Assembly (NCBI GenBank): GCA_963708295.1
Contig: CAVPSJ010000004.1
Span: forward strand, 576,001 to 640,000
Direction of reading: 5' to 3'
Origin: an uncultured delta proteobacterium
GTDB taxonomy: Bacteria; Desulfobacterota; BSN033; UBA1163
Length of the DNA: 64,000 bases
Positions within the stretch are counted from its first letter, which is position 1; each line of letters opens with the position of its first letter. Shown here piece by piece: positions 12,355-44,024 of the stretch. The notes beneath the pieces are model-generated. The model was not told where the DNA came from. It did no database searches and worked only from the letters and a program-made list of their open reading frames with translations. The translations under genes were made by a program, and so were the position numbers.

Positions 12355-12690
12355 ATGAAAGGTTTATATCCGCCGAAGGTCCAAAAGGCAGTCGACGCAC
12401 TGTTGACCAGCCCCGCTGTCTGCACGCCAATACTTCGCCAGGCGGTCGAGGCATATTCAGCAAGGCTCTGGGGTGGCAATAGAGAGGCCCAGGAAATACC
12501 GGCCGACCTAGTGGATTACGTCAGTAAAGTGGCCTTGTACGCCTACAAGACAACGGACGAGGATATTCAGCGACTCAAGGAAGCCGGATACTCCGAGGAC
12601 GCGATCTTTGAAATTACTTTATGTGCCAGCATGGGGGCAGGCCTCGCCCGTCTAGAGCATGGTCTCACGGCTTTGAAAGGAGGCCGGTAG
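12355..12690 (+). CDS. AhpD/carboxymuconolactone decarboxylase-like protein lacking CxxC
   Basis: YVSKVALYAYKTTDEDIQRLKEAGYSEDAIFEIT pattern; its stop overlaps the next start. Confidence 0.75.
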   Translation: MKGLYPPKVQKAVDALLTSPAVCTPILRQAVEAYSARLWGGNREAQEIPADLVDYVSKVALYAYKTTDEDIQRLKEAGYSEDAIFEITLCASMGAGLARLEHGLTALKGGR

Positions 12691-13292
12691 TGCGTCTGCG
12701 AATTCTTGAGAAAGGGTTCAGACCGCTGCAGGAGGCCATCCTGTATATTCTTAGGGCCGTCTCAGGCGGAAAAGTGCCCGGGCCTATCCTGGTCTTATCC
12801 TATCACCGCGAGTTATGCGGCAGATACCTTGCCCCCTGCTATCAGGAAGGGATGCGTAAAGCGACCGAGTGGTCTTTGGGAGAAGCGGAGCTCTTTGCCG
12901 CCTTTGTATCTAAGCTCAATGAGTGCACGTATTGAATGAATGCCCACGCCGCAGTTGCGGTTCTCGGCACGGGCGATGATGAATTGGTGGCGGCGGTCTT
13001 GGAGAACTGGCGAACGGCTCCAGTCAATGAAAAGCTGCGGAGGACACTAGGCTTCTTGGAGAAACTGACCGTTTCACCGAGTGAAGTGAGCCCGGAGGAT
13101 ATCGAATCCGTGCGGTCTGTGGGGGTGAGTGACAAGGCCATCGAAGAGGTGATATATGTCTGCTTTCTGTTTAGCGTGATGGACCGCCTCGCGGATGCGT
13201 TTGGATTCGATATGCCTTCAGCAAAGGACTTTCAACGAGGTGGGCGCGTGCTTTATTCCTTCGGTTACGGGGCGCTTAGTATCCCTGGTTGA
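12690..13292 (+). CDS. AhpD-like peroxidase-related selenoprotein (CxxU; Sec at UGA 12933-12935)
   Basis: GGAGG RBS and GTG 12690; ELFAAFVSKLNECTY-UGA-MNAH stays in frame with ORF 12936-13292; hairpin at 12942-12974. Confidence 0.85.
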
Positions 13293-37094: not shown

Positions 37095-37112
37095 TTGTGA
37101 CCCCTTTCACAA
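37095..37112. promoter_or_regulatory. Rex operator overlapping the rex ribosome-binding region (autoregulation)
   Basis: TTGTGACCCCTTTCACAA palindrome, Rex consensus TTGTGA-N6-TCACAA. Confidence 0.8.
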
Positions 37113-37263: not shown

Positions 37264-39435
37264 TTACTTTATACTTATAATTCCCCCTTTCGCTATTTCT
37301 CCCTTTCTCCTGGCTATCTGTTTGATGGTCTCGTCCAGTCTGCGATTGGCGACTTCAAGTAATTCTTCAGTGTACTCCAAATTATGAACTCCCTTACCGT
37401 TCTTTGCCGAATAGTAATTGAATTCTGCCTCTCCATACAGTTTTCGAAAAACAAACGTATGGCCTCCGCTGAGATCTATCCGATCGATCTCATCCTTGAC
37501 TCTCGCCAATTTAGGTTCCAATTTTTTCAACAAGTCTTCAGACGTCGTCTTCCATCGGACCGCCATCTCACCGTAACTCTGGTCATGACACTCGATGCAA
37601 CGTTTCTTGATGGCCTCAAAGGTGTCCTTCTTCTTCGCCACGATGCCCCGATGACAATCAACGCATTCGACCACACCCAGCTTATTACTCGGTCTCTCCT
37701 TGACGCCAATCCCCCCTTTTCCTTGAACGAGCTTTTTGACTGCGGCATGACAATCATCACATTTCACTTTCTTAATCCCTTTCCCATGATGGCATTCCGC
37801 GCAATTTTTCATGATCGTTTTACCGTGATTTTCCCGTGGAGAATGGCAATCTGAGCACTTCTGCCCGTTACCCGCAATGTGGGTTTGATGGGAGAATTTG
37901 GTGTCATTAAACGAAACGGTACGCTTCTCGATTCCGACATGGCACAGCGTGGTACAGGTCATGCGGGTTTTAGACTCCTGGGGGGTATAGTCTTTATCGA
38001 TAATCGCCAGAACCCGCTCCGTTCTATTGTTCGCTGCATTGAGAAGTTTAAAAGCGTATTCAACATTGTGAACGCCCTGCCCCAAGAGGACAAAGCTGTA
38101 ATTGTGACGGGCTTCATTGAGGAGGTTTTGGGCCTTTTTGAACAGGGTTCCTCCCCCGCTGGTCTTTTCAAACTCAGATAATACTTTCTGGACATTGGAA
38201 ATTCTCTGATTCGTCTCATTTTCCGCCTTGGAAAGAAGCGATTTCCACTGTTTCAACGTATCATCAAATCCCTCCCCGTGGCAGTCGACGCAGGCTTCAC
38301 CGATCACCCGTTCCGCAAATCGAGTGGTGTGGAGTGCGGCCTGACTTTCTTCAGCTCTTCGATGGCAGGCGATACAGTCGACATTGGCCGTAAACATGAG
38401 ACTGGGAGAGTCCGGAACGCCGATCCCTCCCCTCCCCCGGTAAAAATCTCTGGGTCCCAAATGCATTTCCTTGCTGTGGCACCTATCACAATTGGATGGA
38501 GCGTGGGCAAGGGTAGGGATCTCGCCAATTTCATGCCGTAGGGGCGTGTGGCAACTGGAGCATTCGATCTTGTGGTCAGTCACATGTTTCTTATGCATGA
38601 GCTCAGATGTAAATTTCGTACTCAGAAGGACCGGTTCATTGTGACATTCCATGCACTTTCCCTCAGGGACATGGCCGTCTCCCTGTACAACGCTGAGATG
38701 GCACTTCTCGCAAGCGACCCCTCTGGCAATATATTTCTTGTGATTGAAGCTCCAACCCTTGACCCGGATATCCCCTTTCGGCTCCACGTGGCAGGAGGTA
38801 CATCCTCCGACGGCGCATGAAAGGCATTCATCCTCTCCCTTGGGACCGGCCTTGTAATAGTGGCAGATGAAGCAATTGATTTCATGAACCGTCAGGTGTT
38901 TCCCTTGAACGAGCTGAGCATGACAGCTGGCACAGCGGAGTTTCATTCCCCTTCTCAGCTCACCCAAATGTTTTCCGTGTGAGAAGGCCACGTTTTTGTA
39001 AATCATATTTCCCTTCAGATCATCAACCTGATGGCAGCCCTTCTGCAGACAGCTTGCATCGCTGATTTGGGCGTGAGGCGTACTCGGCCTTTTTCCCGAA
39101 AGGAAATAGGCCAGGGATACCTGGCCGTCGACCCACTTCCCCTTCATATGATTCAAAAACCCAGGCTCATAGTGGCATTTCGTGCAAGCGACTTGCTTGT
39201 GGCTGGAAGTCCTCCATGACTCCATATAGGCACTCATTTGATGACAAACTCCACAGAAGGTGGAGGACTCGGTAAATCTGAGAAGACCTCCCACGACGAT
39301 CAGAAAAACAACGATGCAAAATACCAGAAAGATCTTGATTGCCTTGAAGTGGGCTCGAGTGCCCCTCCTCGCCTCGTTGAAAAAATCGATCCAAAAGATC
39401 TTGACCAAATCGTAAAGATTCTTTATAGTTCCCAT
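37264..39435 (-). CDS. Large membrane-anchored multiheme cytochrome c with NapC/NirT-like N-terminus
   Basis: 16 CxxCH motifs plus CLQKGCH and CTTLCH; N-terminal TM helix followed by STFCGVCH..SWRTSSH. Confidence 0.92.
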   Translation of the reverse strand: MGTIKNLYDLVKIFWIDFFNEARRGTRAHFKAIKIFLVFCIVVFLIVVGGLLRFTESSTFCGVCHQMSAYMESWRTSSHKQVACTKCHYEPGFLNHMKGKWVDGQVSLAYFLSGKRPSTPHAQISDASCLQKGCHQVDDLKGNMIYKNVAFSHGKHLGELRRGMKLRCASCHAQLVQGKHLTVHEINCFICHYYKAGPKGEDECLSCAVGGCTSCHVEPKGDIRVKGWSFNHKKYIARGVACEKCHLSVVQGDGHVPEGKCMECHNEPVLLSTKFTSELMHKKHVTDHKIECSSCHTPLRHEIGEIPTLAHAPSNCDRCHSKEMHLGPRDFYRGRGGIGVPDSPSLMFTANVDCIACHRRAEESQAALHTTRFAERVIGEACVDCHGEGFDDTLKQWKSLLSKAENETNQRISNVQKVLSEFEKTSGGGTLFKKAQNLLNEARHNYSFVLLGQGVHNVEYAFKLLNAANNRTERVLAIIDKDYTPQESKTRMTCTTLCHVGIEKRTVSFNDTKFSHQTHIAGNGQKCSDCHSPRENHGKTIMKNCAECHHGKGIKKVKCDDCHAAVKKLVQGKGGIGVKERPSNKLGVVECVDCHRGIVAKKKDTFEAIKKRCIECHDQSYGEMAVRWKTTSEDLLKKLEPKLARVKDEIDRIDLSGGHTFVFRKLYGEAEFNYYSAKNGKGVHNLEYTEELLEVANRRLDETIKQIARRKGEIAKGGIISIK

Positions 39436-39615
39436 CGTAAGGCCTCCACCCAAAGCTCAATTTTACAACCTTTTAAAATTATTGCAAGGGTACCCCCCCT
39501 CTTCAAACTCTGTGATCGAGGAGAAGGAGGGGACCGAGAGAAGCGGGTCAGATTGCCCGGACGGATCTCACTCATCTGACCTCCGTCATCTTCTCGGAAA
39601 ATAGGAAACGGCTGA

Positions 39616-40263: not shown

Positions 40264-40288
40264 CGACGGCTGCACAAAGGAGATGAAT

Positions 40289-41881
40289 ATGATTCCATTG
40301 AAATTCGCAAGGGCCTTGATGCTTGGCGTTGCCAGTTTGATTTTTATTCTGTCTGTGCCTTCTCTCTCTTTCTCATCTCCGAGGGCTCAGTTAAGCATCC
40401 TCTATACGAATGATGTGATGGGTGAGGTCGAGCCCTGTGGGTGATTCCGAAACCCTCTTGGCGGTGTCGCCAAGAAAGCGACTCTGATCTCCCAGATCAA
40501 AATGACAGGAAGAAAAATACTCCTCCTCGACACCGGGAATCTTTTTTTTCGAAAACCTCCTCCAACGGAAACCAAGCGCAGGGAGGCCCTTCTCCGTGTC
40601 GATCTCCTCGTCCACTCCTACAACGAAATGGGATACGATGTGGTCAATGTGGGGGAGAAAGATCTGATGATGGGGGTGAAGTTTCTCACCGAAGTGAGGC
40701 CGAAGGCGAAGTTTTCTCTTGTTTCTACCAATCTTGTGGACAAAAAAACTGGAAAGTGTATCTTTAAACCTTATGTCATCAAAGAGGTCGTCGGCCTGAA
40801 GGTTGCAATATTCGGCTTGCTGGACGATCAATTCAATCCAACCCTCCAGGAGAACGACCCGGCGTTAACCATCATCGACCCCCTCCCCGCGCTCAGGGCG
40901 GCGATGAAGGGCCTGAGAGAATATTGCGACCTCATGATCGTCCTCTCTCAATTGGGCGAATCGAAAGACAAAAAGTTAGCCAGACAAAATCGCGATATCG
41001 ATTTGATTCTAGGAGGAGGAGGGGAATCGAAAAAAGTGGTGATGGAAAGAGAGAATGGGACCGCCATTTACCGATTGGAGCCGAGGGGAGGATATTTGGG
41101 CCGGGTGGATTACTCCTTCAGCGATACGAAGAGACCCATTCAATTTACGATTTCCAGTGAACGGGAAGAGCTCGAGAAGAGATTGGAAAGGCTGATCTCT
41201 CATTCCATGCAAATGAAGATGGAGATGTCAAAATCAGGGAAGCAGGACAATATCAAGGTAAAGGAGCTGAGGTTCCTGGAATCGAAGCAGAAGGAACTGG
41301 AGAAAACCCTGATTGCCTTTGAAGATAAAAATTCTTACAGGCACATTGCGATCCCTGTGCAACCGGCCGTCACCGATGATCCAAGAATCACTAAAGAACT
41401 GGAAACTTATCGGACGGAATCGGCAAAACTCTATAAGCCAAAAGTGGTCGTCGAAGTTGGAAAGGATTTGCCGGAGAAAGAAATGATCGCCCGAATTCCC
41501 AAGACAAGCCCTTTTGCCGGAGCGATCTCGTGTAAGAGATGCCATGCGGTAAATTATAGAAATTGGTCAAAGACCAAACATGCCCAGGCTTCCCAGACGA
41601 TTGCCGCCTCCCCCAAATATGCCCAGGAGGAGTGCCTCATGTGTCACTCCACGGGCTATGGGAAGATCGGAGAGTATGCCGTCGTTTCAGACATCCCATT
41701 CTACCTTCAGGGGGTCCAGTGTGAGGCCTGTCATGGAGAAGGGAAGGGGCATCCGCAAGGGGGAAGGGTGGAGAGGAAAGTGACCCTGGGAGTCTGCCGA
41801 AACTGCCACACCAAAGATCAAAGCCCCACCTTTAATTATATCGCTTATCTTGAAAAGATCGGCTGCAGGGTCTCCGACTGA
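40289..41881 (+). CDS. Secreted UshA/5'-nucleotidase-like selenoprotein (CGU; Sec at UGA 40442-40444) fused to a tetraheme cytochrome c domain
   Basis: AAGGAG RBS, signal peptide, ILYTNDVMGEVEPCG-UGA-FRNPLGGVAKK in frame with ORF 40502-41881; SECIS-like hairpin 40456-40475; CKRCH, CLMCH, CEACH, CRNCH. Confidence 0.88.
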
Positions 41882-41941
41882 AGTTCGGAGTTCGGAGTCT
41901 TGAAATTTAATGCTCCGAACTACGAACTCTTACTCCGAACT
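41881..41941. repeat. Inverted heptamer repeat array (AGTTCGG / CCGAACT) between convergent genes
   Basis: AAGTTCGGAGTTCGGAGT ... GCTCCGAACTACGAACTCTTACTCCGAACT. Confidence 0.7.
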
Positions 41942-43911
41942 TAAACCAGGAACTCCCATGCAATCAGGAAGACGCAGAAAAGCCCGACGGCCAGCATTGC
42001 AAATCCCACCGTCGTTGAGAAGAGGTCTGTTCCCACACTGGGGTACTTATCCCGATAGGTCTCCAACGTCTTCTCCGCCAGCAGGCGATCATACTGTTCC
42101 TGCCTTTCCTCCACCAGTTCGTATTTCGGGAACCTTCCTGTAAAGATCACGGTATCGATCGGGAATTTCGAAGGTCGAAAATGGGTGTTGAAGAAATGGA
42201 CGGTGAAGATGAAGCCGGAAGCCAAAAGCGCCTCATCCGAGTGGACGATCGTGGCAATGTTGAGAATCCATCCGGGTAAAAAGATCGTGAAGAATTCTGG
42301 AAACCAGAGCATCAATCCCGAGAATCCGATAGCAAACATCCCCCAGAAGACGGCCAGAAAATCGAATTTCTCCCAATAGGTCCATCGGTCAAACCGGGGT
42401 TTCGGCCCTTTGTTAAAGAACCAGCGGATCATTCCGATGATGTCCTGAATGTCTTTCCAGCGAGGGCAGAGTGAATCCGGGCCGAAAAGCCTCTGCAATG
42501 GGTTGGGGTTTCCACGGATCTTCTTGAAGAAGAGGAAATAAAAGATGTAAGCGATGGTCGTTCCAAAGTAAGCAAAAGTGATGGCAGCACAGATGCGATG
42601 AATCAAGCCGGCCATCCGAGCCCCTCCTAGAAAATGCATCAGACCGCTGGCCCAGGGGGCATGAGCGAATTTCAGCGGGAGCCCGGTCAGGACAAGGCCA
42701 AGGAAAGTCACCATCATCGTGAAATGGAGGACGATTTCAAAAAAGCTAAATCGGCGATAGATATGACCTGCCTCATCCGGTCTCACATGGAGCGAAAAGA
42801 AGACTCCCTTGGCCCTCAACTCCCGCTTTTCCCAGAAGTCTTTCCGCCACCAGAGAAAAGTGTGAAACCAGAACACTCCAAAGACAGAAACAAGGAGGCT
42901 TGTCATCAGGACAAAGGTTCCGTAGAGCACCGGCTCTCTTTCCGGATCTTTATGGGTCGCATGGGCAATCCATTGCACGAAGTTGGCATTGGCCCCTGTG
43001 TGGCATTTGCCGCAGGTCTCCACGCGCCGCTTCTCCGAGATGAGGGATTTCGGGTTATTCGGAGGCAGAATGTTGTGAAACCCGTGGCAGTCAGCACAAC
43101 CTGCCACCAATCTGGGGTAGCCCAGATGCTCCACTTTTCCATGATAGCTTTCGTAATAGGTCTGGGTAGCGATGAGGAAAACCTTGTTTCTCTTCATCAT
43201 CTCTTTGTCCGCGTGACACTTCTGGCAGACTTCCGTATGGAATTCCTTCCGGAATTCCACCGCTTTGGGTTCATCCCCCTTTAACAAAGGAATCTTATGG
43301 AGGCCGTGGCAATCGCTGCAGGCGGCTGAATCCGGATTTCCGTCGACGACAGCTTGTCCGTGAACGCTTTGAGAATAGCCATCATCCGAGTGGCAGGTCG
43401 TACATGTCTGGATCACTCGAACTTTGTCCCCCTTCCACGGGGTCAATTCATGGATGTCTTTATGGCAGTCTTTGCATTGAATGTCGTTGATGAAATGGGC
43501 GCTTGCATAATGTTCCACCCCTTCTCTTTTATGACATCGATGACAACTCACAGGTTCAGTATGGATTCTTCCCCCTTTCGCCTTCCCATGGGCTTTGACA
43601 TCCGTGATATCATAGTGGCAGCTGTTACAGGAGTTGGCCCCATGAACGGACTGGGCAAATTTCCTCTCGCTGATTTTACTGTGACAGCCCAAACATTCAG
43701 AATTGTCAATGCACTCGTAGCAATACTCCCGGCCCTTCGCGACAAACTTCTCCGCTTTCTTAGGCGGCTCAGAGGGTTTGGTCACCCCTGGGGGCTTAAC
43801 ACTCTCTTTATCGGGAGCAGGCGATGCCGCCCACGACACCCCGAAGCTCCAAAGGAACGAGGCAGAGAGAACGAGACAAACAAGGATTGATTTATTAACT
43901 TTGGATTCCAT
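41941..43911 (-). CDS. CbcL-like protein: periplasmic multiheme c domain fused to an integral-membrane cytochrome b (FdnI-like) domain
   Basis: Signal peptide, 9 CxxCH motifs, then TM domain with LHF..LTGLPLKF, HR, YWEKFDFLAVFWG, HSDEALLA..HFFNTH. Confidence 0.88.
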   Translation of the reverse strand: MESKVNKSILVCLVLSASFLWSFGVSWAASPAPDKESVKPPGVTKPSEPPKKAEKFVAKGREYCYECIDNSECLGCHSKISERKFAQSVHGANSCNSCHYDITDVKAHGKAKGGRIHTEPVSCHRCHKREGVEHYASAHFINDIQCKDCHKDIHELTPWKGDKVRVIQTCTTCHSDDGYSQSVHGQAVVDGNPDSAACSDCHGLHKIPLLKGDEPKAVEFRKEFHTEVCQKCHADKEMMKRNKVFLIATQTYYESYHGKVEHLGYPRLVAGCADCHGFHNILPPNNPKSLISEKRRVETCGKCHTGANANFVQWIAHATHKDPEREPVLYGTFVLMTSLLVSVFGVFWFHTFLWWRKDFWEKRELRAKGVFFSLHVRPDEAGHIYRRFSFFEIVLHFTMMVTFLGLVLTGLPLKFAHAPWASGLMHFLGGARMAGLIHRICAAITFAYFGTTIAYIFYFLFFKKIRGNPNPLQRLFGPDSLCPRWKDIQDIIGMIRWFFNKGPKPRFDRWTYWEKFDFLAVFWGMFAIGFSGLMLWFPEFFTIFLPGWILNIATIVHSDEALLASGFIFTVHFFNTHFRPSKFPIDTVIFTGRFPKYELVEERQEQYDRLLAEKTLETYRDKYPSVGTDLFSTTVGFAMLAVGLFCVFLIAWEFLV

Positions 43912-44024
43912 TAGCCCCCCAGAAACAGAAAGCCGAATCACCCGGCCCTTCAAGTAAGTACGAGGGTTATTCCGGCGAGACTCAAAGAAAATTCAATTTT
44001 TTTTGGATTCTAAACGAGGGTAAA

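Follow-up and report, generated by a model that had tools for sequence, protein, structure and literature searches.

On the forward strand of the window, by which we mean the whole 64,000-nucleotide stretch of DNA that was analysed, lies a gene (40289..41881) for a UshA-like protein. It is flanked by rex, a 16-heme cytochrome gene, a DUF1684 gene and a gene for a CbcL-like 9-heme cytochrome fused to a cytochrome b domain. Its two nearest relatives are at loci L001 and L002. The features of the gene and its flanks are as follows.

37264-39453, reverse strand: membrane-anchored cytochrome with 16 CxxCH motifs, upstream of rex; also a conserved neighbour of the gene at L001 and L002
39616..40263, forward strand: DUF1684 gene, 25 nt upstream of the gene and probably co-transcribed with it; a position shared by the two nearest relatives only
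40276..40282, forward strand: Shine-Dalgarno-like AAAGGAG, 6 nt before the ATG at 40289 (by eye)
40289..41881, forward strand: whole gene, UshA-like (seleno)protein of family NF041198, 530 aa with Sec52 (translation with TGA read as U; profile match)
40289..40375, forward strand: probable Sec-type signal peptide, aa 1-29 (by eye)
40376..41443, forward strand: calcineurin-like domain of the 5'-nucleotidase/SoxB type with a degenerate dimetal site, up to the hinge helix, aa 30-385 (AlphaFold2 model, fold search, residue map)
40436..40444, forward strand: predicted redox motif C50-G51-U52, with the TGA at 40442-40444 (translation, alignment, loci)
40456..40475, forward strand: SECIS-like hairpin with an 8-bp stem and the loop GUGU (folding, locus comparison)
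41153..41323, forward strand: two long helices inserted in the nucleotidase-like domain, aa about 289-345, which shorter members, for example protein P0127, lack (AlphaFold2 model, alignment)
41507..41869, forward strand: cytochrome c554-type tetraheme module, aa 407-527 (matches to PF13435, 1bvb and OcwA)
41941-43953, reverse strand: cytochrome with 9 CxxCH motifs and a fused cytochrome b domain; likewise a conserved neighbour of the gene at L001 and L002

A Rex-box scan returned no site upstream of the gene, and promoter and terminator scans were near chance. The best match in the Rex-box scan was a near-palindromic site at 37095-37112, at the start of rex, with one mismatch to the consensus, which suggests that rex may regulate itself. 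A plasmid search with the gene gave 53 records, none of which covered 80% of the query.

With TGA translated as U, the frame from 40289 to 41881 contained a single internal UGA, codon 52 at 40442-40444, in the context EPCG-U-FRNPLGG, and the table-11 ORFs ending at 40444 and starting at 40502 lay in the same frame. The initial annotation had joined these two ORFs across the UGA into a 530-aa product with a signal peptide and four CxxCH motifs. Translation confirmed the joined product and its motifs (aa 415, 449, 478 and 503), and the first 29 residues, with a basic N-region, a hydrophobic core and no lipobox, look by eye like the proposed signal peptide; the N-termini at L001 and L002 are hydrophobic too. 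No Shine-Dalgarno-like sequence was seen by eye before 40502. The overall observation on 40289..41881 thus stood.

The gene is a member of an already catalogued family. Its product matches the NCBIfam equivalog NF041198 (UshA_like_PCGU) with 473.6 bits against a cut-off of 275, residues 18-517 aligning to positions 7-518 of the 519 in the profile, and carries, as EPCGU, the PCGU/PCGC motif near the N-terminus that is a trait of the family. The four-heme fusion, initially presented as an addition to the known UshA-like family, is not one, because the heme domain falls inside the NF041198 model. Among the matches listed, the family is spread over Myxococcota, Planctomycetota, Acidobacteriota, Nitrospinota and Gammaproteobacteria. 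The accessible text of PMC13188914, PMC9312934 and PMC2398784 tabulates UshA-like proteins as CxU selenoproteins with no function given and does not mention their hemes; that of PMC2398784 reports 76 sequences of them in ocean metagenomes, where they were one of the more abundant selenoprotein families, and sets them apart from families whose Cys-based redox motifs are recognised. The family goes unmentioned in PMC1976440. We found neither a functional or structural study of NF041198 nor a printed function for it in the open-access literature, in agreement with the earlier statement that no defined function is known for UshA-like CxU proteins.

GTDB genomes were scanned with a 21-sequence alignment as the query, a diverse alignment (A1) being too variable as a seed. 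The 80 relatives listed, of 359, form a sample biased to the heme-3 motif and comprise 71 readable loci, 7 stand-alone tetraheme cytochromes and 2 loci cut by contig ends. Among the readable loci of the matches listed, the position of codon 52 was TGA in 28 of 71 and Cys in 43, with nothing else found at this one site, which supports the proposed Sec read-through. Two cultured carriers, Myxococcus sp. CA023 and Nannocystis punicea FL3, have the Cys form. Homologues were also compared for CxC versus CxU: in an alignment of 115 rows (the window protein, 101 of 150 representatives and 13 of 120 close database proteins), the site is covered by 70 rows, of which 69 have C50 and all have C/U52. In the set used for the residue map, C50 and C52 are conserved in 149/149 by selection, which is not evidence. 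On a tree of the loci among the matches listed, built with FastTree only and with long branches, the Sec/Cys label changed twice versus 22 times in shuffles, and the window gene fell in an all-Sec group of 10 (support 95). Since the TGA genes occupy only about two lineages on this tree, they are not independent and reflect few independent events.

A start of the homologues at the Met of 40502 had been named as a refutation of the initial reading, and in the database 119 of the 120 closest proteins do begin downstream of the UGA position, as judged from their protein entries. In L001 and L002, the two close relatives with readable DNA, the upstream coding region and the TGA are kept, with synonymous changes, and for this reason we read the downstream starts as a likely gene-calling artefact. 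The point matters for annotation, as nearly all close database entries are left without the signal peptide and the active site. A tRNA scan found no tRNA in the 64-kb window, nor did the 28 TGA loci yield a tRNA-Sec.

Two further sequences deserve mention. In P0056, a close full-length homologue (69%), EPCER replaces EPCGU and CEARH replaces the heme 3 motif, so that it is either a decayed copy or the product of a sequencing error. The window also holds a second in-frame TGA, at 12933-12935 in the frame 12621-13292 (forward strand), which would encode an AhpD/peroxidase-related protein with the motif CTYU (CxxU). The read-through product passes TIGR01926 (83.9 versus a cut-off of 81.8), and its true start is probably downstream of 12621. 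A hairpin after this TGA, with the loop AGUU, appeared in one of two folds only and was not above shuffles; we regard the protein as a candidate second selenoprotein of the window.

Eleven nucleotides after the UGA of the UshA-like gene, which is the spacing of the E. coli fdhF SECIS upper stem, begins the hairpin TCTTGGCG/GTGT/CGCCAAGA (-13.0 kcal/mol); its perfect 8-bp stem and GUGU loop, at 40456-40475, are as first described. It fits all four constraints of the bacterial SECIS model quoted in PMC13188914, which gives a loop of 3-9 nt with G in the first two loop positions, a stem of 4-16 bp, a spacing of 16-37 nt and an MFE of -7.5 or lower. Taken alone, the hairpin is modestly above chance (z of -1.4 to -2.2 versus dinucleotide shuffles; p about 0.046 versus synonymous-codon shuffles), a weak single-gene signal because the LGG-x-AK peptide itself favours such a stem. 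Across 29 TGA genes, the window gene included, the mean best stem was 7.2 bp versus 5.2 bp expected from shuffles, while 38 Cys genes gave 5.1 bp versus 4.9 bp; the pairing in L001 and L002 is kept through G-U changes. The loop lies 19 nt after the UGA in the window's clade. Outside it a second register is dominant, in which the loop falls on the GGLARR codons, 28 nt beyond the UGA (L030, L021, L012 and many other TGA loci) and the element 20-40 nt after the UGA. Rfam had no match in the window.

The mature protein was modelled confidently by AlphaFold2 (pLDDT 92.3, pTM 0.88), domain packing included. Fold searches, the listings of which were filled by matches to the N-terminal domain, retrieved E. 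coli 5'-nucleotidase (Z 33.6, rmsd 2.3 A, 280 residues) and SoxB (Z 31.8), confirming the calcineurin-like 5'-nucleotidase fold. In UshA, the dimetal ligands and catalytic His are supplied by DxH, GD, GNH, H and GHxH. Against three intact nucleotidase domains, only one of eight canonical residues is kept in the window protein (D42) and the other seven are replaced (H44>M, D84>N, N123>E, H124>K, H221>Q, H244>G and H246>E), as the initial annotation had mapped them. A C-terminal 5'-nucleotidase domain was absent among the four Pfam matches, the region being PF13435 instead, and with the site residues also gone, nucleotidase chemistry appears to be lost. Nucleotidase/SoxB-type models reached 55-60 bits against cut-offs of 550-600 (SoxB model TIGR04486, 59.6 versus 550). 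Across the family these site residues scatter, while C50 and C/U52 stay fixed. Among 149 members, none keeps more than 5 of the 8 and His is not among the seven commonest residues at position 124, and since D84, H221 and H244 are kept together in 50, some members may still be able to bind a single metal. The initial description of the domain as metal-site-less is therefore true of the window's clade but not of the family.

The C-terminal region matches PF13435 with 53.1 bits against a gathering cut-off of 20.8, 1bvb with an E-value of 3.7e-10 and OcwA (6i5b) with one of 1.6e-13. Its motifs and candidate ligands are listed here.

41531..41545, forward strand: heme 1 motif CKRCH, aa 415, invariant in 115 of 115 aligned rows
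41579..41581, forward strand: H431, conserved candidate distal ligand (115 of 115), aligned to a His of c554
41633..41647, forward strand: heme 2 motif CLMCH, aa 449; predicted open, active-site heme contacted by C50 (alignment, model)
41720..41734, forward strand: heme 3 motif CEACH, aa 478 (translation, alignment)
41750..41752, forward strand: H488, conserved candidate distal ligand (113 of 115)
41795..41809, forward strand: heme 4 motif CRNCH, aa 503, followed by the loop Q511-S512, the contact of U52 in the model (translation, model)
41864..41866, forward strand: C526, candidate axial ligand in the terminal position, where other members have His (alignment column)

Because there are three conserved candidate distal ligands (H431, H488, and C526 or His) for four hemes, heme 2 would probably be left open; ligand count and homology support this. 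The terminal ligand column contains Cys in 66 and His in 34 of 113 filled rows, usually 19 residues after the last CxxCH, and C526 probably makes a His/Cys heme in the window protein. A single-sequence fold of the heme domain had a pLDDT of 33.

The position of the CxU motif relative to the hemes was modelled with P0127, a natural Cys homologue (31% identical), the two domains of which were folded as separate chains together with four hemes. The complex scored 0.77 versus 0.01 for the best control; 116 of 157 solved pairs attain the score mark, as do 2 of 215 mismatched ones, although these counts are only rough for this job. Runs had at least 94% shared contacts and a partner pLDDT of at least 91. 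In the complex, C48 of P0127 (C50 in the window protein) touches C369 (C449, the heme-2 attachment Cys), and C50 (U52) touches residues 433-434 (Q511-S512) in the loop after heme 4; these are residue contacts, reported without an Fe-S distance, and the hemes were not scored. The model lends support to a possible position of CxU on heme 2. It also agrees with the initial proposal that Sec/Cys adjoins the heme chain. The modelled C50-G-U52/heme-2 site is similar to the arrangement of Cys, Sec and heme 2 in MccSep, although the scaffolds are unrelated. According to the accessible text of PMC13510729, which contains no mention of UshA or c554, heme 2 of MccSep is His/Cys-ligated, the Sec is 3.6 A from the ligating Cys, and both residues are needed for polysulfide reduction.

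Gene context was compared across the family. Family genes often sit among housekeeping genes, most loci have no informative neighbour, and a family-wide conserved operon was looked for and not found among the matches listed. A DsbA gene lies directly downstream in L006, L007, L014 and L016, a thioredoxin-HEAT gene is adjacent in L033 and L063, and a TlpA-like gene is upstream in L075. In the 62 loci used from the matches listed (11 were dropped by the ORF caller and the 7 stand-alone tetrahemes excluded), DsbA/TlpA/Trx genes accounted for 7 of the 115 ORFs adjacent to the family gene and for 4 of the 605 remaining ORFs (p 4e-4 by Fisher's test, or 0.024 with the loci reduced to 4 lineages), a result obtained with already known matches as queries and resting on about 4 lineages. 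ResB/ResC and MauE genes occur near the family gene in several loci, with ResB at L007, L014, L021 and L030, and a CcdA/DsbD-type gene at L006. Fusions point in the same direction: 4 of 150 representatives, as well as L045, carry a DsbA/GILT-like domain in the same chain, with a full CxxC in two of these five (CPHC, CIHC) and a single Cys in the other three (CPYG/CPFG). Fusions to DUF1573 occur in 6 of 150.

A separate family, P0279-P0284, which matched through its duplicated heme domains and is without the UshA-like domain, combines a tandem TlpA-like thioredoxin (CPHC/CPRC) with two c554-type modules and has a further CxxC (CDSC/CNEC/CPEC) immediately ahead of the final heme. Its proteins were 6 of 6 long matches but count as one family; their Atlas clusters, of 460, 84 and 199 members, are mostly from Myxococcota. 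An earlier search for longer relatives was uninformative: of the 8 proteins found, most were nucleotidase fusions of the ordinary kind. Altogether, the family-wide gene context leans towards thioredoxin-fold protein partners at least as much as towards oxyanions, so that sulfur or selenium substrates, as suggested initially, stand as one option.

Other arrangements were also recorded. P0132, P0140 and P0189 are fusions of ~1200 aa in which two UshA-like domains (PCEC and CxC) flank DsbA-like domains, with a degenerate heme module. Long N-terminal extensions are fused to the UshA-like/tetraheme unit in L027 (8519-11311), L064 (7619-10516), L075 (8504-11320) and P0240, and a peptidase M61-like N-terminal domain was matched in L027 only. 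The L004 gene row reads DUF1573-rhodanese-MauE-UshA-like(Sec)-Fer4_5. L062 and L071 carry stand-alone c554-type tetrahemes beside DUF1573, with a rhodanese-like ORF in L062 (by eye). In the planctomycete locus L072 (3924-8619), DUF1573 and the Cys-type gene are immediately preceded by hydrazine synthase genes, a neighbourhood that is probably incidental since it is not repeated in the Scalindua locus L053.

A Sec or Cys at codon 52, Cys50, the loss of the hydrolytic site and the c554-type module in place of the substrate-binding domain are established at the level of sequence. Beyond these, we consider it probable that CxU acts at heme 2 in S-S redox chemistry; if it does, a protein partner seems the better guess. 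The reading that we prefer, at a little under an even chance, is a periplasmic tetraheme-c selenoenzyme that would serve as a cytochrome:thiol-disulfide oxidoreductase, with partners most likely of the DsbA/TlpA type. Such an enzyme would link one-electron heme chemistry to two-electron thiol/disulfide chemistry in the periplasm. As modelled, the dead nucleotidase domain would dock on the heme module and present C50-G-U52 at heme 2, where C50 would bind or approach the free axial site and U52 would be the nucleophile that attacks or resolves the S-S bond. The resulting C50-U52 selenenylsulfide could be cycled one electron at a time via hemes 1, 3 and 4 to the periplasmic cytochrome pool, in exchange with thioredoxin-fold envelope proteins of the DsbA/TlpA type. 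Direction is the weakest step: given a protein partner, we lean very slightly to oxidation, in which the enzyme would re-oxidise its partners as a soluble, heme-based stand-in for DsbB/VKOR.

The same site could instead handle an inorganic substrate, as a periplasmic polysulfide (or selenite) reductase that is MccSep-like and fed by the neighbouring multiheme cytochromes, which we regard as the main rival, possible but on balance unlikely. MccSep is a direct precedent with all three elements (PMC13510729). This reading is best supported in the window gene's own clade: respiratory multiheme genes are neighbours in the window, L001 and L002, and L002 (73% identical) has a PhsA/PsrA-like Mo enzyme-NrfD-FeS operon next door, the PhsA/PsrA-like protein scoring 318.8 bits, under the 694 cut-off. 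Nearest labelled relatives on the tree are Thermodesulfobacteriota, and a rhodanese is encoded two genes before the family gene in L004 and about 1.8 kb before it in L075. Of the 10 members of the Sec clade that includes the window gene, 9 were checked (L056 was dropped), and none of these has an adjacent Trx-fold gene. Against it, the family has no conserved operon, PhsA and NrfD queries each found only themselves among the locus ORFs, and members are common in Myxococcus, Nannocystis and Nitrospina, which are aerobes not known to respire sulfur. The thiol-disulfide and polysulfide readings share an active-site model and differ in substrate, and clades may differ in role.

We consider it improbable that the open heme 2 binds a small ligand (peroxide, NO, hydroxylamine or sulfite), or that CxU binds a metal, in a detoxifying or sensing enzyme. 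Open hemes in c554-type scaffolds are substrate sites, OcwA reduces nitrite and hydroxylamine, and the 50 of 149 members noted above keep three residues able to hold one metal; however, the window's clade has lost those ligands, and the invariant Cys pair with Sec substitution and the repeated DsbA/TlpA links would go unexplained. A protein that is still a phosphoesterase or a SoxB-like thiosulfohydrolase, with Cys/Sec replacing the lost metal ligands and accessory hemes, is very improbable: the fold match to 5'-nucleotidases and SoxB is strong and the CGU loop comes after the first metal-binding motif, but the canonical residues are depleted as described in the window protein (1 of 8) and throughout the family (none above 5 of 8, position 124 included), model scores are about a tenth of their cut-offs, and a cytochrome stands in place of the nucleotide-binding domain. 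That the UGA is a true stop, leaving a pseudogene or two separate ORFs, is barely credible, for the late starts of 119 of 120 database proteins, the lack of a tRNA-Sec in the window or the 28 TGA loci, and P0056 with its EPCER and broken heme motif are set against a TGA exactly on the Cys column in 28 of 71 loci among the matches listed, a conserved upstream coding region with synonymous changes, a curated selenoprotein family and the AhpD-type CxxU frame in the same window.

What is new here, namely the count of heme ligands, the model of the docked domains and the links to DsbA/TlpA, yields testable active-site and partner hypotheses for an unexplained family. If the preferred thiol-disulfide reading with protein partners is true, an unrecognised heme-based thiol-disulfide system would exist in many phyla. 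A bolder version, which we find distinctly doubtful, is that NF041198 provides a widespread third route of periplasmic disulfide formation, in which a soluble heme-c enzyme would re-oxidise DsbA-type proteins by means of a CxC/CxU pair bound at heme 2 and pass electrons to cytochromes rather than quinones. Bacteria would then have their own version of the Mia40/Erv1-to-cytochrome c logic, on the scaffold of a dead nucleotidase and with a site convergent with that of MccSep. If the polysulfide reductase reading is true instead, the catalytic design of MccSep would have arisen twice.

Compared with known systems, nothing sets the window protein apart from NF041198 at the family level, given its full-length match above the cut-off, its PCGU motif and the heme domain in the model; relative to NF041198 at large, the window's clade is without nearly all site residues, has the helical insertion and uses Cys rather than His as the terminal ligand. 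MccSep/ExtKL, the polysulfide reductase of Geobacter sulfurreducens, is likewise a periplasmic multiheme selenoprotein, and the Sec and Cys at heme 2 that its accessible description demonstrates are modelled in the window protein. Unlike the window protein, with its four hemes and N-terminal Sec, MccSep is described there as a tetramer with five hemes, a Sec in a C-terminal Ig-like domain and a ligating Cys far from the Sec. NF040886 (MccSep/ExtKL) was not among the 16 NCBIfam matches (E 0.01), and MccSep appears to be a convergent analogue, not a fellow member.

The c554-type module is common to the window protein, cytochrome c554 of Nitrosomonas and hemes 1-4 of OcwA; unlike in those proteins, it is here fused to a CxU-bearing domain and ends in a Cys ligand, and NF043010 scored 32.5 bits against a cut-off of 400. 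With UshA/CD73-type 5'-nucleotidases and SoxB the window protein shares the N-terminal fold and hinge helix (Z 31-34), whereas the dimetal and catalytic residues are lost and a cytochrome replaces the C-terminal substrate-binding domain. DsbB, VKOR, Erv1/Mia40 and ferredoxin:thioredoxin reductase couple dithiol/disulfide chemistry to a one-electron or quinone carrier. The window protein has no homology to them and is soluble and heme c-based; they would be functional analogues only. Ferredoxin-thioredoxin reductase exists in a CxU selenoprotein form too.
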